Shown here: in pieces, positions 6,517-52,068 of the stretch
Position numbering within the stretch: the first letter of the stretch is position 1
How the letters are laid out: every line of letters begins with the position of its first letter
NCBI GenBank assembly: GCA_976551045.1
Contig: CDPCPM010000016.1
Location: 27,094,001-27,158,000 of the forward strand
Direction of reading: 5' to 3'
Length of the DNA stretch: 64,000 bases
From: Glaucostegus cemiculus
Taxonomy: Eukaryota
The notes under the pieces: generated by a model
Databases searched by the model: none
Told to the model about the DNA's origin: nothing
What the model saw: the letters and a program-made list of their open reading frames with translations, nothing else
Program-made: the position numbers and the translations under genes

Positions 6517-8348
6517 TCATGAAGGGCTAATCAAAAACCCTGAGAAAGATGACTGTTTCTCATCAGATGAATATAAACCATTGGCTTCTTCTGAAGGTAG
6601 CAATACATAGACTTGGTCATTTTCATGTAAGTGTACTATAATACTTCCTGAAGCCTGATCAACATACCCTGTTGTGTAATCGTCATATGTTTGTAGTATG
6701 GGTTTTCCATTTTTATATATTGCAACCCAGACACTTGCCCCCTTGATTTGTACATGGTAACTGAATTGGTAAAGCCCTGGTATTTCACATGTAAATACAC
6801 CAGATGATGGATTGTAGTTGTTATTTGAATTGGTCACTAGTATGTCAAACATAATTGGTTGACCTACTGGTGGATATGGCCGAGATAGAATGGCTGTAAA
6901 AGCTGGAACAGGACTTAATAATCCAGGTGGTGGCTGTACAGATTTTTCTGGTTGGACATAAATTTCACCAGGTAAACCTGGTGGGCCTGGAAGACCTGGT
7001 GGACCTGGAAGACCAACTGCTCCATTTTGACCTGGTGCTCCTGGTGGCCCCTTGATTAATTGTCTACTAACAATGCCTGGAGGCCCTGGTCGTCCTGGAG
7101 CTCCTGGAGCACCATCTTTACCAGGAAGCCCTTGTGCACCTTTCAAACCAGGCAAGCCTTTGTGACCAGGTGTTCCCACAGGTCCCCTCAGTCCTACTGG
7201 ACCTGGAAAGCCTAATGGACCTTGAGGACCAGGAGCACCAGGGCTTCCTGGTTTACCAGATGGACCAGTAAGCCCAGGATCACCTTTTTGGCCCACAAGT
7301 CCAATTGGTCCTGGTAGACCTGTTGGACCTGGTTTTCCGGGAAAACCTGATATACCTGGGCTACCAGTTGGTCCTCTCTCACCCTTTGCTCCTGGGTAGC
7401 CTTGTATACCCATGTGCCCTGGTGCCCCTTTCATTCCTGGTGAACCAGGAATTCCTTGTAAACCTCTGGGGCCTTCTGATCCCGGTATACCAACTGGTCC
7501 CATTAATCCTGGAGGTCCTGGTTTTCCAATTGGTCCCATCTCACCTTTCTTTCCAGGATATCCAGTATAACCAACTGGACCAGGTTCTCCTTTGGATCCT
7601 GGATCACCTGGCTTTCCAATACCTGGCAAGCCTGGTGCCCCTGGCAAACCTTGTAAGCCAGGGTGACCTTTAAGACCAGGGGGCCCTGGTAATCCTGGTG
7701 AACCATTTACTCCAGGCTTTCCAATTCCAGGTTGTCCAGGTGGTCCCGGTGGCCCTTTTTGACCTGGTGCACCTGTGAAACCAGATGGGCCTGGTGGTCC
7801 AATTTCACCCTTTTTACCTGGTTCCCCAGGGCGACCAGGAGCTCCGGGCGCACTTAATCCCACTGGTCCTGGGATTCCTGGTGACCCCGGGGAACCTGGA
7901 GGTCCTTTCTCACCAGCAGGCCCTGGGATGCCAATTCCTCTTTCCCCTTTTGGCCCAGCAGGACCAGGATAACCTGGATGTCCCTTTGCTCCAGGTAACC
8001 CAGGTACGCCTGGAGATCCTGATGCCCCTGGTGGACCTGGTTTTCCAACAACTGACAATCCAGCTGGTCCAGGATTTCCTGGAGGCCCTGGACTGCCTCT
8101 CTGCCCTTGTAGCCCTTGAACTCCTGGATCACCTTTTGGTCCAGGATATCCTATTCTTCCTGGCTGTCCTGGTGATCCCGGAATGCCTGGAGCCCCCTTT
8201 AAAGTGAGTCCTTGTGGTCCTGGTTGTCCTGGATCGCCAGGAGCTCCTTTCAGCCCAATACCTGGCTTGCCTGGATATCCTGCTTGGCCTGGGGGTCCTG
8301 GTGGTCCTGGAGGTCCAGGTGGTCCAGGTAACCCTGGATCTCCCCTCA
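6517..8348 (-). CDS. col10a1: Collagen alpha-1(X) chain, copy A, exon 3 (triple helix + C1q/NC1 domain)
   Basis: Uninterrupted ORF with a Gly-X-Y helix carrying 8 imperfections. The NC1 has [50 protein letters not shown], typical of type X collagen. The acceptor aactttctaccttcacAG (AG at 8349-8350) gives a phase-1 junction G|TG-AGG-GGA-GAT. TGA is at 6517-6519. Confidence 0.93.
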
Positions 8349-9584
8349 CTGTGAAGGTAGAAAGTTGCATCTAAATATAATATGCTTTCATAGTTAATTT
8401 TTATTCCTCTCTTTAAAACAGAATTATGAGCAAAATTAAAACAAGTCATATTTCAATTTGCTTATATTACACTGTCTTGAGAAATGTAAAAATGAAATCA
8501 CAATTTTAAAATGGTTAGAACTAAGGGGTGAGATTTTCTGCTGTGTTGTATTGATTTTGCATGCTATCTTATCCAAAGCTAGTCAAAAGATTAAAGAATG
8601 GCCGTCTCAAATGACCTTCAGTGCAGGCTGAATTTCTGTAATCTTTTGCATTATATAAAAATTATAGCACGAGAAACCAGTCCTGCTCACAAAATTTGCC
8701 ATACCATGTGATCAAATAAATTCCATTTTATGGACTTTTGAGAAGCAGCTTCAATGTAAATTTGGAGGCTCCAAAATACTGATGGACACATTTTGAAAGC
8801 TTTTATTTTTTGTAATCAAACTGACTAATACAACTGATAAATGGGGCTTCTGCATGGGTATTCTACAGTAATTTTCAATTTTTTAAAATGGACACCTTGT
8901 TTTCCAAAAGTTTACATGATAACTCACTTTAACTCTTAATAAAACTCATAGATTTAGTATCAAAGAACATTACTAATGATTTTTTAAAATAAATTAAGTT
9001 GTAAAAGACAGACTACTTTTGCTGGTCCATGGAGTACTTTATATGTGGTGACATGCAAATAAGTTGAAGTGAAATATCGAACATGGAAACTAATTTCCCA
9101 AAACTAGCTGATTGTACTCAAAGTGGGAAAACATGGTAAATAAAATTAATATGGTTAATCAATTTGGGTTTCTGTTAAAGCTTATTGTTGAAATGTGACT
9201 TTTAAAAGTTGTTTAACAAGCATTTAAATGGATAAATGCTTAAAGAACATTTAGACCTATGAAATTGAGAGAGCTGTACTTGAATACTATAAATTCCATT
9301 TGTAAAAGAGCAAATTTTTAGGGTGTTTTGATGTTATATTCTTGCTTGAGTGATATTTGTTGACCTGTTTGTCAAGGTGTGGTACTATGTTTGTAGTTTG
9401 AGATTATTCTTCCTCCTATTGTGGAAACGGTTTCAATAGAACTAGAATACTACAGACCTATAACAGATTTTAAGTAGAGATGTGGGAAGAAGGAGAAGGA
9501 AAAATAAGTGGTTAGGTCTGTGATTAGGTGGAAGTGAAGCAATGATAAAATACTAAAAGACAAATTATGTAATCCTGGTAAAAG

Positions 9585-13639: not shown

Positions 13640-14605
13640 ACACTCAGCCCCCTATTTTACACTCATAATTCCATGGTCAGATTCTGCTCCAACTCCATCT
13701 ACAAGTTTGCAGATGACAGCTGTGTAGGGGACTAAATCTCAAATAACGATGACTCAGAGTTCAAAAAGGAGATACAGATCCCAATGGCATGGTGTCATGA
13801 CAACTTTTCTCTCAATGTCAGCAAAACAAAAGAGCTGGTCATTGACTTCAGGAAGTGGGGTGGCACACACGCTCCTGTTTACATCAACGGTGCCAAGGTT
13901 GAGAGCTTCAAAGTCCTAGGAGTGAACATCACCAATAGTCTGTCCTTGTCCAACTGTGTCAATGCCATGGCCAAGAAACACACCGGCGCTCCACTTCCTC
14001 ATGAGGCTAAAGAAATTTGCATGTGCCTTTTGCCCTCACCAATTTTTATAGATGCACCATGGCTTGGTATGGCAACTGCTCTGCCTGTGACCACAAGAAA
14101 CTGCAGAGAGTTGTGGACTCAGCTCAGCACATCATGGAAACCAGCCTCCCCTCCTTGGACTTTGTCTGTACTTCTCGCTCCTTCAGTAAAGCAGCCAGCA
14201 TAGTCAAAGGCCTCACCCACCCTGGACCTTCTCTCTTCTCCGCTCCCCCACCCCCTCATGAAGCAAAATGAAGATTCAAAAGGCTGAAAATATGTACCAC
14301 CAGGCTCAAGGACAGCTTCTATCCCACTGTTATCAGACTATTGAACAGTCCAACAATCCCCTTATACGATAAGTTGGACTCTTGACCTCACAATCTACCT
14401 CGTCATGACCTTGCACCTCATTGTCTGCCTGCACTGCACTTTCTTTGTAACTGTAACACTTTATTCTGCATTCTGTTATTGCTTTTCCCTTGTACTACTT
14501 TGATGTACTGATGTGATGAATTGATCCGCATGGATGGCAGACATAACAAAGTTTTTCACTGTACCTCAGTACATGTCACAACAATAAACCAATTTACCAA
14601 TTTAA
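13640..14605 (+). mobile_element. Rex1/Babar-clade LINE, 5'-truncated
   Basis: SIYKFADD; WCHDN..LNVSKTKELVIDFRK; LTNFYRCT..AWYGNCSA..KKLQRVV. The 3' tail is 'tttcactgtacctcagtacatgtcacaacaataaaccaatttaccaattt'. Confidence 0.85.
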
Positions 14606-18652: not shown

Positions 18653-18761
18653 CAAGACTTTTTGTATTATAGGGTGATTGATTGTAGGTTTTATATCCTA
18701 CTCCATACACCAGGGTAACAGACATAGACATCAGAAGTGCACCAACTTCCTTTGAAATCAT
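18653..18761 (-). CDS. col10a1: Collagen X copy A, coding part of exon 2 (signal peptide + NC2): MISKEVGALLMSMSVTLVYG-VGYKTYNQSPYNTKSL
   Basis: Acceptor catttacAG at 18777-18778, then a 15-nt leader and 36 codons + 1 nt, then donor G|GTAAGT (GT at 18651-18652). The phase matches exon 3. It is homologous to exon 2 of copy B and to the LVHG signal-peptide end of tetrapod COL10A1. An in-frame upstream ATG at 18773 would add MPSN. Confidence 0.88.
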
Positions 18762-33274: not shown

Positions 33275-33366
33275 ACATTTTCAAATTTGTAAATCACACA
33301 ATCTAGTTTATTTATATTTTACATTTTCAAATTTGTAAATCACACAATCTAGTTTATTTATATTTT
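33275..33366. repeat. Perfect 46-bp tandem duplication
   Basis: ACATTTTCAAATTTGTAAATCACACAATCTAGTTTATTTATATTTT occurs at 33275-33320 and 33321-33366. Confidence 0.95.
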
Positions 33367-36494: not shown

Positions 36495-38329
36495 TCAAAT
36501 AGTTTGACTAATTAAAAATCCTGAGAAGGATGAATGCATATAATCAGAAGAATATAAGCCATTGGACTCGACTGAAGGTAACCCAACATAAACTTGGTCA
36601 TTTTCACGTAAGTGTATTATAGAACTTCCTGAGGCTTGATCAACATAACCTTCTGTATAATCATCATATGTGTACATTATAGGTTCGTCATTTTTGAACA
36701 GTCCAACCCAAACATTTCCTCCTTTGACTTGTAAGTGATAAGTAAATTGATAGATACCTGGCATTTTACATGTAAATATTCCAGTTGAAGGATCATAATC
36801 ATTATTTTGATTGGCAAGTACTTTGTCAAATGCTATAGGTTGTTGGGCTGCTGGAAAGGATTCTGAAAGAATGGCCGTAAAAGCTGGATATGAATTTGTG
36901 ACTCCTGGCACAATGTGACCATTATAGCCCCCATACTTTCCTGGTTGTGCACTTTCCCCTGGAGGCCCTGGTGCACCAGGGGGCCCAGGTGGACCTGGTG
37001 GACCTTCTGGGCCTGGAGGGCCTGGTGGTCCTTGAGGTAACTTCTCATGGAAACTGGAAGAAAGACCTGGTGGCCCTGGTGGCCCTGGAGGTCCTGGATC
37101 TCCTTTTTCTCCAGGGAATCCTGGAGGGCCTGGGTAACCGGGAGGGCCTCCTGGACCAGGAAGTCCAGGGGGTCCATTCAATCCAACCTCACCTGAGAAT
37201 CCTGGTGGCCCTGGAAGACCTGGAGAACCAGGTTCACCTGTTTTGCCAGGTGACCCAATGGGTCCAATAGCACCTTTCTGGCCAGGAGGTCCTCTTGGAC
37301 CTTCTGGCCCAGGCAGACCAGGTTCTCCTGGAATTCCTGATTTACCTGGGGCACCCCCAGGACCCATCTCACCCTTTAGTCCTTGATATCCTCGAGCACC
37401 TGCTGAGCCCGGTTCCCCTTTAGCTCCTGGTGCACCAAGTGCACCAGGTGCACCTCGTAGACCTTGAGGCCCAGGTGGACCGGATGGTCCTAAAAGTCCA
37501 GAAGCTCCTGGATTACCTGGGGCACCTTTTTCTCCTTTTTCTCCAGGATATCCGGCAGGGCCTGGTGAACCTGTGTCCCCTTTAAGTCCTGGTGGGCCTG
37601 GTCTCCCAAAACCAGGAAGTCCGGGTTCACCTGGTGGGCCTTGGGAACCAGAGGAACCCTGGGGTCCAGGAGGTCCTGGTAACCCTGGTGTGCCATCCAC
37701 TCCAGGCTTTCCAATACCTGGTGGTCCAGGTAGCCCAGGTGGGCCTCTTTGACCTGGTGCACCAGAGTATCCAGGTGAACCTGCTAAGCCTTTTTCACCT
37801 TTTTCTCCTGGCTTGCCAGGAATGCCCGGGGCTCCTGGTTTTCCGTATCCTACTTCACCGCGAATTCCTTGTGGTCCTGGTGGTCCAGGGGGGCCCCTTT
37901 CACCTGCACGCCCTGGTATTCCAACTCCTCTTTCTCCTTTTGCACCAATTGGACCAGGGTACCCTGGTTCTCCTTTTTTCCCAGGTGGACCTATTGGTCC
38001 CGAAGCACCTGGCGGCCCTTGTGCACCCGGTTTACCAGGAATGGACAATCCATTTGGCCCTGGAAATCCTCTTGGACCTGGTAAGCCTTTCTGTCCTTGT
38101 ATGCCAGGAGGTCCCATGCTCCCTTTTGGTCCAGGGTACCCTCTTTCACCTGACTTTCCTGGTGCTCCTGGAATACCATCCTTCCCTATGCCTGGTAGCC
38201 CCTGTGGACCTGGCCGCCCTGGATGACCTGGTGGTCCTGGAGTTCCAACACCTGATTTTCCTGGGTATCCTGGTGGGCCTGGTGGACCACGTTGTCCTGG
38301 TGGACCTACTGGTCCTCTGTACCATCTGA
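36495..38329 (-). CDS. col10a1: Collagen alpha-1(X) chain, copy B, exon 3
   Basis: The frame stays open 212 nt upstream of the ORF-track Met, up to the acceptor ttttctattaacAG (AG at 38330-38331). It reads (G)TC-AGA-TGG-TAC-AGA-GGA = [15 protein letters not shown]. The NC1 has [65 protein letters not shown], very close to canonical type X. Confidence 0.95.
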
Positions 38330-38759
38330 CTGTTAATAGAAAATGAAGAGATCTGTTTTAGATTATGGTATCAATATTTATATTGTGCATTGCTTCATTA
38401 TAAGGGTTGAACTGATTTCAACATTACCCTTTATTTTTCTAGGATGTACGTTTTGAAAGATGAATGAAAAATGGCCAATAATGGAAACTGATTATGATTT
38501 TTTTTATATTTACAAAAATTAGCAACTTAGTAGCATGAGCTGTACTGGTAAACAAGCAGATATTTGGAAGCTTTATGAAGAATAATGGAGGGTAAGTAAG
38601 TGTATTCAAAGAACTTCAGCTAATTTTTCAGCTTTTTAGCAAAGAACAAATCCTTGAAATAGAATTACATTGAGTTTAATAAGTTCAAAAATTGGATTCA
38701 CAAATTTGTACATGTAGAATGAATTACATATTAATGCCAGGTTTGTATACCTCCTTATG

Positions 38760-40890: not shown

Positions 40891-43800
40891 GGGAGCATTA
40901 AAGTGGATAGTAGGTTGCTGCTGACTTCTGCTTTATTTTGTTATGAAACTGGTCCACAGTTGAGGTATGGTTGGATGCACAGTAGTAAATGGAGTGGGAT
41001 CCTAAGCTTTCTCAATGGGATGAATTTTTCCCATTAGTGTCAAAGCATACAAACTTCACTAATACTTGACTTTTCTTTTATCCCCCATTCCGCTCTGACC
41101 AGACTTCCCTCACTTTGCAACCAGGAACAATGTAGCCTTGATTCAATTCAGAATTTCTCAGTTGATTTTGATGGTTGGGGCGAATTGTAGTGGTGGAGAG
41201 AGATTTTTTTGAGACTTCAAAAAATAAGTGATTGTGTTTGATAATCGGAGGTCTAATTGTAAAACGAGAAACTGGTGTCTGTGGAAAGATAAATTTACAG
41301 AGGGGAGAGATGATGGCAACAAACTGATAATGGCAATGGGAAGCTGGGAAGATGGAGTTTAAAATGGCTTACCCAACACCACAGTGATAAGTGGCACAGC
41401 ACACTCATTTGGAAAGTTAACATGAAGAACTCATTAAGAAGTGAGTAAAATGGATAGGGAAGTTTAATAACAAATTAAGGGTATAGTGGAAGTAGATGGG
41501 ACAAAAACACATCACATGAATAAACTAGATTTCTTACTCCCCTACAATAATCTTGATTCTATTGAGAATTAATGATGGACAATGCAATTCTATGTGTAAT
41601 ACAAGCCACCTTCTCACCTCTGGGGACAGAGAAAGTAGACACTCGATTTTCTTCCGAGCTCTCAGAACTTCGATCTCTGTTTCGCTGACCTATTTAGGAA
41701 AAGTCAACAAATCACAGTGGAACTTTAACAAATATTTTCATTTGTTACTTTGGGTTCATACACAAGCACACTAGTGGAAGGATTGCCACAAGTGATCTTT
41801 TGGCTGTCCTGTAATAATTTATGTTGTCCCTAGTGAAGAAGAAATTCTGTAAATTGCGTTGGTTAAAATTCTCTCAGTTGCACGCATGTGGCAAATGTTG
41901 CAGTAACAGTTTGTACTTAGTACCTTATTAAAAAGAGTAGAACTTTTGCTTACCAAGGCAATTTTTGATTTGTGTTCAAGCTTCAAAAGGGTAATAAAAT
42001 GTATTTAAAAAAATTGAAAAATAATAATTTAATTATATAAAATATAATTAGTTTCTAAATATAAAAATATAAAAATATATAAATATAAAAAGTTTCTAGC
42101 TATAGATTCTCCATACTGAACTATGTGTTGTTTTTCCCTTTCCTCTTAAAGGTTGTTTCTGCAAAGTTACTTTGCATTACTTCTGTAGTAGAAGATTTTG
42201 ACACAACTCTTATTGCTTTTCCCTGCCTTGCTAAAAAAAATTGTGCTGATTTTAATCAAGTTGTATGTGTGTAAGAGTAAACAAAAACATCAAAAAAAAT
42301 GAACCCGTATCTTTGATGGCTTTCCTTCAAACAGGAAACTTTAAAAACAAACCTTTGCAAAGCTTGGATGATGAGAAGTACTAACATTGACTTTTATCTA
42401 TGCTTAAAATTAGAAAGTTTATGTAAGAAAATATGCCGTTACTTATAAAAGACAATGAACCATATTACCTATATAATGGAAATTATGATTTTACTTCATT
42501 AAAGCAAGGTTACCGTTGACATTCAGTTTAATTTATATTTTGTTGTTTGTACTAAATAATTATCTTACTGTAGCCCAGTATCTAATTGATCATACTCATG
42601 CAATGATCATACAACATGTGTAAGGTTTTTTTTAGTTTTTATTTTATCCTCTTAATAAAATCAATGCTTTGGGTTGAATTGAATGCACAGGCCCAAATAT
42701 CTTAACCACTGACAGTGCCACATTCATTACACTGGACTGTCTGCTTTGACCATGAACACTGCACCACACCCTTCTGACTCAGGCAAGATTATTACCAACT
42801 AAGCCATGTCAGCACTATGTGGTGAAGATTTAACCAATTATGAGCAGGGGAATGACATCATTCATGAATCAATTCTGTGGAACTAATAGAATATTCTTTC
42901 TTAACAACAATTAGACAGACACGTTCTCTGAGCTTAAGAAAGACTGCAAAACACATTGGTACATCTCAATGATTTTTAAATAATGTTGAATATTTGTCAT
43001 CCAAATTAAAATTGTATTATAATAGCACATTTGATTACATTTATTGTTTATTGGAGCACATTGCTTCGGGGGACAGTTTTTTTTAGAAAAAGGCTTCATT
43101 TGGAAAATCCAGGTGGAAATCTGAGATCTATTATCTGAACTGCACCTGATGTTGAAGAATGAAAGAAATTAATGACATAATGATTACTACAAGGAATACT
43201 GCAAAGTAATTTAAATTAGGAGTGTACTTAAGTATAATGGGTGTCTTAAATTTAAGCACAATTATTTTGTTTCATTATTGCCATGGTAGTTTATTTTCCT
43301 TCTGGTCAATTGTTTTATCAATAACTAATTACTAGCAACTGATACCTCCTTGTAGGTTTTCATACCTGCATGGTACTTAAAGTTTTGTAGATTTCTTGCC
43401 TCTTTAATTCACCTGAATTTTTTTTTCAAATCAGCATAACATTTGGGTCAGTGAGCAGAATCTTCCTGGCTGATGCTGGGTTTCCAAAGGAAAACACCTG
43501 AGTTAATTGACTCAAATGGAAGTCGTGGTTTTATGTGGACCGATGTTAGTCTGGGACTGATTGAGTGACAGATTTTAATACAATGGCTGGAGGTACTTAG
43601 TGTTAAAGTAGAAATTGCCTCTCCTGTTCACTATTGGCTGAAGTATGGTTGAAGACCTCAAAGTGATTATTGCCTATGGAATGTGGTTTTTTTTATTATT
43701 TTACTTTAATGTTTTTAATGATTTGTAATTACAGTAAATATTTAATTAACTTTGTTTAGAAAATTTACATAATTCTTAATGGCATCTGGAAGGTTTTTTT

Positions 43801-44024
43801 TAAACTCCTCACAGCTTTGACGGAAACCAAAGCTCCACCCTCAGCTCTGCCTTCTGTCAAACCATGTCAGGGGTATTCTGGGGATGGGTCTTTGCACTAC
43901 CTTAGGCCTCATCACTGCTCCCCATTTCCAAGTTGCAGAGGGAGAGCAAGATAGATCCTTTATGTCTGTCCCTGATGAATGTGGCCAAGAAAGGACTACA
44001 GCTTGGTATTGGTGTCAGTTTACG

Positions 44025-44608
44025 GCACACCAACGCATCGATTTCCTCAGAAGACTAAGGAAACTTGGCATGTCCCCGATGACTCTTACCAGTTTTTACA
44101 GATGCACCATAAAAGGCATCCTATCTGGATGCCTCACAGCTTGGTATGGCAACTGCTCTGCCCAAGAGACCTATGAATTCAGCTCAGTCCATCACACACT
44201 CTAGCCTTCTCTCCATTGACTCTGTCTACACTTTCCACTAGTTCAGAAAAGCAGCCAAAATAATCAAGCACCCCTGCCTCCCCAGTCATTCTCTCTTCTC
44301 CCCTCTCCTTTTGGGCAGGAGATATAAAAGCTTAGGAACATGTACGACCAAGCTTAAGGACAGCTTCTATCCTGCTGTTATCAGATTCCTGGGTAGACCT
44401 GTCATATGCTAAAAGATGAACTCTTGATCTTGCAATCTACCTCATTGTGGCCCTTGCACTTTACTTGCAACTGTAATACTATATTCTGCATTCTGTTTTC
44501 CTTTTGACTACCTTGATGTGTATTTGTATGGAATAATCTGTTTGAATGGCTGTGAAATAAAACTCATTTCACTGTATCTTGGTACATGTGACAACAATAA
44601 ACCAGTAC
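44025..44608 (+). mobile_element. Rex1/Babar LINE, 5'-truncated
   Basis: AHQRIDFLRRLRKLGMSPMTLTSFYRCTIKGILSGCLTAWYGNCSAQ, with a 3' UTR collinear with 14200-14600. Confidence 0.85.
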
Positions 44609-47193: not shown

Positions 47194-47293
47194 CATTGGT
47201 ATTGTGTGCATTATTATATCTATAATATCCAAGTCCATTGACCAAGGTAACAGTTAATAGCAACAGAATTGCACCACCCTCTTTTGGAGCCAT
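47194..47293 (-). CDS. col10a1: Collagen X copy B, coding part of exon 2: MAPKEGGAILLLLTVTLVNG-LGYYRYNNAHNTN
   Basis: Acceptor ctttacAG at 47309-47310, a 15-nt leader, strong Kozak aacATGG, 33 codons + 1 nt, then donor G|GTAAGT (GT at 47192-47193). It encodes a hydrophobic signal peptide. It is too short for the ORF track. Confidence 0.92.
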
Positions 47294-49099: not shown

Positions 49100-51360
49100 C
49101 AGATTGCTAACTAAATCTGGAATCAGCAAGGGTAGAACTTATAATGGGGCCAAAGACCATGGTTTAAAGCATTTAATTGGAGGAAATTGTGACATTCAAG
49201 ACAGGATATTGACAAGAAGTCTGATGCAATGGAGGCAGGAGAGAAATTGAAATAATTGTTGAAGAGCTTGAGTTGAGTGTTTTCAGCATTTACATCTTTG
49301 GAACTAACTAATGAGTGCCAAGGAGATCTGGAAAAGAATGGTGCTTGGATGCATTTGTGTGGAAGCAGTAAGGAAGGCCAGTACTGGAAGTGACCTGGCT
49401 GCAATTGTATACCTAACAGTCAAACCAAGTGAGGAGAGTTCCAGGGTGATGAACAGTGGAGAAGAATGATGTGGCTGAAAGGTTGCGGGGTGCAGTTAAG
49501 ATGAGAAGAAAGTGCACAAGCTCATGCTGTCCTTTGTTGCTTTTATTAGTGCCTTTGCTATGGAAAAGTAACTGTTAAGATTGTGATTTGGAGGTGTTGG
49601 AGAGATAAACACAAGTTTGAGAGGCATCAGTGCACTCAGGACTTGGAAAATGGACCCGTAGACTCCAGGTTACAAAGGTACTGATAGTGGACTTTGTAAA
49701 ACAGGTTGGGACTGGTAGTTTTGAATTTGCATAATGAGGATGACTGTACCTGAGAATGTCATCAGGAAGGAAAATTAGTTGGGAAGGCTGAGTTGAAATG
49801 AGATAAAGGGAGCAAGTTTTTTGTTCCCTGAACTAAACAACCTTAGAGATAGGAAAGGAACTAAATAAAGATACCAGCTCTCAGAGGTGGAGTAAAAGAG
49901 AAGCTCAAGATGGTGTTTCACTTGACTAGCTGTAGGAAGTAAGAGTAGGCATTAAGGATGGAATGGGTATAGGGAAGGATTTAAGTAGCTGATTGTTAAT
50001 GGAGGAAAGAATTCTTGTTCACCAGGTTGTTCCTAGAGCATTATGTGGATTAAGCAGAGGTGCTTGGTGAACCATAGAACCATAGAACTTTACAGCACAA
50101 AACAGGCCCTTCGGCCCACCAAGTTGTGCCATCCTTCAAACATCTCACAATCTAACTCTTTCCTCCCACATATCCTACTATTCCACATTCTTCCATGTGC
50201 CTATCTAACAATCTCTTGAACCTGTCCATTATATCTGCCTCTACTACCACCCCAGGCAGTGCATTCCATGCGCCAACCACTCTCTGGGTGAAAAACTTCC
50301 CTCTGACATCTCCCTTAAACTTTCCACCCAATATCTTATAGCCATGCCCTCTCATCTTGTGCATCTGCGCTCTGGGAAAGAGGCGCTGGCTATCAACTCT
50401 ATCTATTCCTCTCAATATCTTATATACCTCTATCAAGTCCCCTCTCATCCTCCTCCTCTCCAATGAGTAGAGCCCTAGCACCTTAAGCCTCTCCTCATAT
50501 TCCATACCCTCTAATCCAGGCATCATCCTGGTAAATCGCCTCTGTACCCTCTCCAACGCCTCCACATCCTTCCTATAATGTGGCGACCAGAACTGAACAC
50601 AATATTCTAAGTGCTAAGTGAAGGTCATGCTTTTTACCCTCACACTATTCCTTAGATAATACAGTGAATAGAAATTAGGAGTATATGGAGGAAGGCTTTT
50701 AACATCATCTTCAACATGTATATTAATGAGTTGGATGGGGTTGAATCCCATTAGGTGTATCTAACTCTTGGGTTGGCAATCTGGATGTTAAAGCTGGAAT
50801 GTGGACTGACAGGAGCAAGTTTTGTACTTGATAGCTTCTACCTCCATTGCAAATGGTTTTATTAACAAAGAAGTCCACTTCATTAGAACAGGTAGTGAAC
50901 AATGACGCCAAATACGCTCAGATTTACACACCCTGGACTTCTTTAGAGATAAAAGATGGGGGAGTAATCAGAGACCGAGACAGTAAATGTTTACTGAGGA
51001 GAGGGGAGGTGTGGTTAAGCAGATCATTAGTTAAGAGATTGCAAGTTTGAAATGCACTATAAATATCCTAAAATGGATTAGTGAAAAATATCCCAAGATG
51101 GAGAGGAGATGTGTGTGGATCAAAGAATGGGAAAAGCAATGTGAGATGATGCTTGTGCAGAAGCTGAAGGAAGATATCTTGGAAAAAGATGAAGAAAGGA
51201 TTAGCAGATGCAGGAATGTAACGAAAATAAGGATCTTAAAGAAAACTCATGAACGGGATATGTGGAGGGCATGTAGGTACCAGACAGATTGGAAGGGAAG
51301 ACAAGTGGTGATCAGAATTATAAACATGACTTATAATGAAAAGTGTAGCCAGGAAAGGAG
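49100..51360 (-). mobile_element. Very old L2-like LINE remnant (interrupted by young CR1)
   Basis: Purine-rich plus strand with a faint LLxDLSAAFDTVDH-like trace near 49460-49520. Boundaries are uncertain. Confidence 0.35.
50069..50613 (-). mobile_element. Young CR1 (HER1-like) LINE, 5'-truncated
   Basis: Stop-free ORF2 C-terminus ALERVQRRFTRMMPGL..LERRRMRGDLIEVYKI..FFTQRVVGAWNALP, with an 8-mer tail (GTTCTATG)n. Confidence 0.93.
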
Positions 51361-51931: not shown

Positions 51932-52068
51932 NNNNNNNNNNNNNNNNNNNNNNNNNNNNNNNNNNNNNNNNNNNNNNNNNNNNNNNNNNNNNNNNNNNNN
52001 NNNNNNNNNNNNNNNNNNNNNNNNNNNNNNNNNNNNNNNNNNNNNNNNNNNNNNNNNNNNNNNNNNNN
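51932..52068. other. Assembly gap (137 N)
   Basis: Run of N. Confidence 0.99.

Follow-up and report, generated by a model that had tools for sequence, protein, structure and literature searches.

A Col10a1.3-type collagen of Glaucostegus cemiculus with two substitutions in the proposed aromatic assembly strip of its NC1 domain

Introduction

Elasmobranchs carry six tandem Col10a1 copies (Debiais-Thibaud et al. 2019, PMC6759074), and this cluster is expressed in teeth and scales, with all six paralogs expressed in the same organs (PMC6759074). In the catshark, Col10a1.2 is found in ameloblasts, and Col10a1.3 is found briefly in secretory ameloblasts together with Col10a1.1 and Col10a1.2 and then in odontoblasts; its level is low (11 and 2 TPM, versus 31 and 16 for Col10a1.2), and Col10a1.6 reaches 77 TPM in the ray jaw (PMC6759074). 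The main text of that study contains none of the words "aromatic", "NC1" or "heterotrimer" and does not discuss NC1 surface residues. Our searches found no paper on the Col10a1.3 NC1 surface; the relevant passages of PMC13188829 concern only Col10a1.4, the endoskeletal copy.

Chick collagen X molecules first come together at their C-terminal globes, after which lateral association of the helices builds a hexagonal lattice (PMC2289091), and collagen VIII forms NC1-centred tetrahedra and lattices (PMC12864517). Aromatic strips on the NC1 surface have been the proposed basis of network assembly in collagens X and VIII since the crystal structures, and their role in the lattice is worded as proposed or "likely" in the sources (PMC8172203). 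Each strip has eight residues, W611, Y615, Y623, Y625 and W651 from one subunit and Y562, Y663 and Y667 from the next, a list that we took from a secondary source (PMC8172203) and not from the original structure papers. Our searches of the open-access literature found no mutational test of the strips and no report of a chondrichthyan collagen X lattice. Here, we describe a paralog in which two of these strip residues are replaced.

Results

Two adjacent collagen genes resemble Col10a1.3 and Col10a1.2

The window, i.e. the whole 64,000-nt stretch of DNA that was analysed, contains two short-chain collagen genes, copies A and B, both on the minus strand:

6517-8370, minus strand: copy A open reading frame
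6517..8348, minus strand: copy A last exon, triple helix and NC1 (Pfam Collagen, E 6.5e-69; C1q, E 2.4e-33)
6520..6906, minus strand: copy A NC1 (C1q-type) domain (phmmer to 1GR3, E 2.9e-53)
18653..18761, minus strand: copy A (Col10a1.3) first coding exon, signal peptide and short NC2, with a phase-1 GT donor (splice junction inferred)
36495-38357, minus strand: copy B open reading frame
36495..38329, minus strand: copy B last exon, triple helix and C1q-type NC1
41618..41689, minus strand: copy B acidic NC2 exon, 72 nt, RSSESSEE
47194..47293, minus strand: copy B (Col10a1.2) signal-peptide exon, like the published Col10a1.2 rows (by eye)

The spliced model of copy A (646 aa) is open, with a single terminal stop and a signal peptide; that of copy B (668 aa) is also open. 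Copy A has the architecture of collagen X, namely a signal peptide, a short NC2, an interrupted triple helix and a C-terminal C1q domain, and its helix and NC1 lie together in one last exon, as in Col10a1. Its NC1 is nearer to collagen X (1GR3, E 2.9e-53) than to collagen VIII (1O91, E 2e-48).

We matched copy A to published Col10a1.3 by eye, over the N-terminal 400 alignment columns. Its first coding exon begins MISKEVGALLMSMSVTLVYGVGY and matches thornback ray Col10a1.3 at 18/19 residues, and its first helix stretch is identical to that of the thornback ray at 78/88 positions and to that of the whale shark at 74/88. Copy A also shares the GPQGLTLKG motif with published Col10a1.3, and it has the same place in the array, adjoining copy B directly downstream of Col10a1.2. 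The 72-nt exon of copy B agrees with a short acidic motif described in Col10a1.2 (PMC6759074). On the strength of both signal peptides, the first helix stretch of copy A and the acidic RSSESSEE exon of copy B, we assign copy A to elasmobranch Col10a1.3 and copy B to Col10a1.2.

In an unrooted NC1 tree, copy A grouped with a Chiloscyllium Col10a1.2-type protein and with shark Col10a1.5 and Col10a1.6 (chondrichthyan grouping 99/97). An Atlas search returned generic C1q clusters, and Rfam gave no match. Col10a1 is located within an intron of Nt5dc1, close to Frk. A Pfam scan of 71 of the 163 open stretches and a motif scan found no Nt5dc1 exon in the window; as the locus is published with a span of up to 400 kb, these exons may lie beyond the window. 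The scans that gave the acidic serine-rich exon of copy B found no equivalent in the copy A intron. Neither the Col10a1.3 gene nor its duplication is new, and the functional effect put forward below for the NC1 changes is a putative one.

Elsewhere in the window, a perfect two-copy 46-base tandem repeat (33275-33366) lies between the two collagen genes, and positions 51932-52068 are a 137-base assembly gap of N. Three further open stretches, at 50152-50613 (minus strand), 43821-44201 (plus strand) and 13736-14203 (plus strand), presumably are retroelement remnants, which they resemble; the one at 43821-44201 has a Pfam match to ALKBH8_N (E 2.1e-05).

Copy A has replaced two of eight strip aromatics

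An earlier note on this DNA had read ILQTYDDY and SSDEKQSSF in copy A where copy B has IMYTYDDY and SSDYMHSSF, and both motifs and their coordinates were confirmed codon by codon. Residues 3-132 of the query aligned without gaps to residues 30-159 of the 160-residue 1GR3 chain, such that the human position is the index + 547. This offset depends on the end of the 1GR3 chain, which we take to be residue 680. Relative to human collagen X, copy A thus carries Y623Q, Y667E, V668K and H669Q, the same numbering that the note had given; it agrees independently with the assignment of c.2001 to Tyr667 (PMC12743679). At 668, copy B has Met, unlike the human Val. The substituted sites and the retained strip aromatics are as follows:

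6691-6693, minus strand: copy A, Gln at human 623 (Y623 lost), CAA versus TAC in copy B
6553-6561, minus strand: copy A, EKQ at human 667-669 (Y667 lost), GAG AAA CAG versus TAT ATG CAT in copy B
36672-36674, minus strand: copy B, Y623
36534-36542, minus strand: copy B, YMH at 667-669
6874-6876, minus strand: copy A, Y562 retained
6727-6729, minus strand: copy A, W611 retained
6715-6717, minus strand: copy A, Y615 retained
6685-6687, minus strand: copy A, Y625 retained
6607-6609, minus strand: copy A, aromatic retained as Y651
6571-6573, minus strand: copy A, Y663 retained

Across the four substituted codons, copies A and B differ at seven bases, with no indel and the frame kept. Tyr to Gln and Tyr to Glu each take at least two base changes, which makes base-call error implausible, and the sequencing errors that the earlier note had considered do not account for the motifs.

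The note had further described the changes as a loss of aromatic residues from the assembly surface. For Y623 and Y667 this is correct, but V668 and H669 are absent from the available strip list (PMC8172203), and the loss is partial: six of the eight strip positions remain aromatic in copy A, against 8/8 in copy B. All eight are aromatic in 6/6 bony-vertebrate COL10/COL8A2 rows and in both 1GR3 and 1O91, and the sites are therefore normally constrained. The eight-residue strip is a structural feature of the bony-vertebrate members, not of gene orthology. Both aromatic losses specific to copy A fall inside the strip, with a chance probability of P 0.16 (8/19 positions), so that clustering in the strip is by itself suggestive, not significant. 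When five chondrichthyan rows, which are not independent, were pooled, strip losses numbered 5/40 against 1/55 other aromatic cells (P 0.08). This count leaves out positions 576 and 598, where every one of the rows has lost the aromatic; with them included, losses at other aromatic cells are 11/65.

At the positions of human Y576 and Y598 (copy A codons 6832-6834 and 6766-6768, respectively), none of the five chondrichthyan NC1 rows has an aromatic, and 6/6 bony rows do; position 598 is Gln in all five. These two losses, together with W651Y, set both copies A and B apart from human collagen X. We take Y598 to be a site of human chondrodysplasia mutation.

E667 recurs in other chondrichthyan paralogs

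Among the rows examined, E667 occurs in 3/9 chondrichthyan and 0/8 bony-vertebrate NC1 domains. The changes in copy A are thus not all private to it, as the earlier note had allowed they might be: E667 is also present in a shark Col10a1.6-type NC1 and in elephant shark Col10a1.5. The former belongs to P0016, the best representative match, a fused shark model with Col10a1.5 and Col10a1.6 units that we assigned by match to published rows. Its C-terminal unit (GLHSSEEKSSSFSG) has H663, E667, K668 and S669; it shares E667 and K668 with copy A but, unlike copy A, keeps Y623 and loses Y663. Elephant shark Col10a1.5 (published supplement fig. 3, where NC1 is readable for the Col10a1.5 rows only) has L611, I623, E667 and Y669; it resembles copy A in E667 and a non-aromatic 623, and differs in having lost W611 and in Y669. 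The three elasmobranch Col10a1.5 rows keep the rings at 611, 623 and 667. A strip ring is also lost (W651S) in the Chiloscyllium Col10a1.2-type protein, an ortholog of the copy B type. The lost rings therefore vary by copy: 623 and 667 in copy A, 663 and 667 in Col10a1.6, 651 in Chiloscyllium Col10a1.2, and 611, 623 and 667 in elephant shark Col10a1.5.

Homolog searches (6/78, 5/151 and 0/183 candidates) yielded no NC1 of a Col10a1.3 ortholog; the single chondrichthyan protein among them was the Chiloscyllium protein of Col10a1.2 type. Nor was such an NC1 present among the best 150 representative matches, which held one usable shark protein. NC1 trees from 11 rows, built both with the seven sites and after their removal, did not settle the order of copy A, Col10a1.5 and Col10a1.6, and neither did trees of the helix joined to NC1 from 7 rows; they do not tell E667 by descent from parallel E667.

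We considered a wider conversion tract between copy A and Col10a1.6, and none was visible at the NC1 sites, since only 667 and 668 are common to these two against copy B and Col10a1.5. A general decay of copy A was likewise rejected: in 12 relative-rate tests, its NC1 evolved no faster than that of copy B or of the remaining copies (P at least 0.19 throughout).

Copy A NC1 is predicted to fold and trimerise

The AlphaFold2 model of copy A NC1 had a pLDDT of 88.9, and Foldseek placed it at TM 0.92 to both 1GR3 (rmsd 1.1 A, 59% identity) and 1O91, i.e. the predicted fold is that of human collagen X and of collagen VIII. The trimer-base residues 553, 556, 557, 641, 675, 677 and 678 are identical in copies A and B, L575V being the only change. 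Prediction with three copies of the domain plus calcium gave a homotrimer score of 0.66, versus 0.00 for the best of 3 controls, though this may reflect memory of solved trimers. Contact agreement was at least 98% and pLDDT at least 91; calcium was unscored. The homotrimer mark was reached by 21/30 microbial and 17/29 eukaryote homo-oligomers, and by 0/23 and 0/30 single chains.

In the predicted trimer, residues 73-80 (with Q623) line one interface face and residues 120-122 (E667-K668-Q669) the opposite face, which suggests complementary faces of the seam between subunits. No pair between 623 and 667 or 669 was present among the best contacts listed. As the altered stretches lie at the predicted inter-subunit seam, a change in chain selection becomes a rival to loss of the lattice.

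The calcium-cluster motif is kept in copy A:

6655..6687, minus strand: Y625-D626-D627-Y628-T629...D634-Q635

By alignment, copy A has Thr at 629, like human collagen X, where collagen VIII has Lys; we take this Lys to be the one that fills the calcium sites of collagen VIII. Collagen VIII keeps the acidic motif and nevertheless has its calcium sites filled by lysine (PMC8211825; PMC12864517), so calcium binding does not follow from the acidic/DQ motif by itself. Copy A resembles collagen VIII in fold but lacks both its 8/8 aromatic strip and the lysine that replaces calcium. The proposal of the earlier note that copy A may trimerise and bind calcium is supported, in that the trimer-base and calcium-cluster residues, T629 included, are retained and a trimer is predicted; judged by sequence and model, trimerisation and calcium binding are both likely kept.

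The Col10a1.6-type NC1 (P0016 2196-2324) shares Lys at 629 with collagen VIII, unlike copy A, and the Col10a1.5-type NC1 (P0016 1214-1338) has Q635H. Hence the calcium cluster may differ among Col10a1 paralogs too.

Discussion

Our best reading of the changes in copy A is a paralog-specific resurfacing that would tune NC1 association. We give an even chance to the account in full, in which copy A is an intact Col10a1.3 whose NC1 would trimerise and likely bind calcium, and whose two polar or charged strip sites would weaken or re-target clustering but not abolish it. Neighbouring subunits contribute Y623 and Y667 to each strip, so an A homotrimer would lack both rings in every one of its three strips. 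If the strips drive clustering, such a trimer would present six rings per strip, edged by Gln and Glu-Lys, and this smaller, charged-edged patch would make NC1-to-NC1 association weaker or differently specific.

The same substitutions might instead have no selected effect, the partly exposed sites having become near-neutral after duplication. Different copies have lost different strip rings, the strip enrichment is not significant (P 0.16; pooled P 0.08), and adiponectin and C1q chains are polar at 667-669 with the same fold, all of which would be expected under such relaxed constraint; we still judge it unlikely, given that three paralogs have Glu at 667 and two of them (copy A and the shark protein) have EK, and that copy A shows no general acceleration. 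Equally live, and unlikely in much the same way, is a role in chain selection, whereby the seam changes would steer co-expressed paralogs into homotrimers or towards particular partners and would hardly affect the lattice. Here, the placement of Q623 and EKQ on opposite interface faces of the predicted trimer is joined by a strip that spans the subunit interface (PMC8172203), by six paralogs active in the same organs (PMC6759074), and by changes at the non-strip positions V668 and H669 as well. On the other hand, a 623-to-667/669 pair is missing among the best contacts listed, Col10a1.6 has E667-K668 yet keeps Y623, and the core trimer residues are near-identical in copies A and B.

The earlier note went further and suggested that A trimers may stay outside the usual network, with A as a soluble chain or one that caps the lattice, perhaps in A/B heterotrimers. 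In such a heterotrimer, a single A chain would impair two strips out of three. The replacement of two of eight rings, one by a charge, points in that direction. The helices of the two copies align without a gap over ~440 residues, so that register does not exclude heterotrimers; collagen VIII chains can heterotrimerise (according to a review), and the low catshark Col10a1.3 overlaps briefly with Col10a1.1 and Col10a1.2 in secretory ameloblasts (PMC6759074). We nevertheless hold capping to be distinctly improbable: six strip aromatics are left, W611 among them, the lattice also uses lateral helix association (PMC2289091), and the final site of Col10a1.3 is odontoblasts, whereas Col10a1.2 is in ameloblasts (PMC6759074). 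Furthermore, Col10a1.6, with two strip losses and E667-K668, is at 77 TPM in the ray jaw (PMC6759074), which fits a bulk component better than a cap. There is next to no chance that copy A is a pseudogene or an artefact of sequencing or assembly. Its sequence comes from a single assembly, and the searched protein collection has no identical entries, but the codon changes are multi-base and keep the frame, the 646-aa model has a signal peptide and no internal stop, and EK is found again in the independent protein P0016.

Under paralog-specific resurfacing, several tooth and scale Col10a1 copies would have re-surfaced the same patch, and that of copy A would be part of the subfunctionalisation of these copies. 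We see an improbable extension, on a par with capping, in which the strip-edited set (Col10a1.3, Col10a1.6 and holocephalan Col10a1.5) would act as low-valency or terminating subunits that set the mesh of the enameloid-dentine scaffold; if this were true, one edited chain per mixed trimer would spoil two of three strips. The Y623 and Y667 variants are natural, predicted to be folded and apparently old, and offer a ready comparison of copy A with copy B for the strip mechanism. For the sharks and rays, they may add a protein-level side to the published expression-level subfunctionalisation of the Col10a1 copies.
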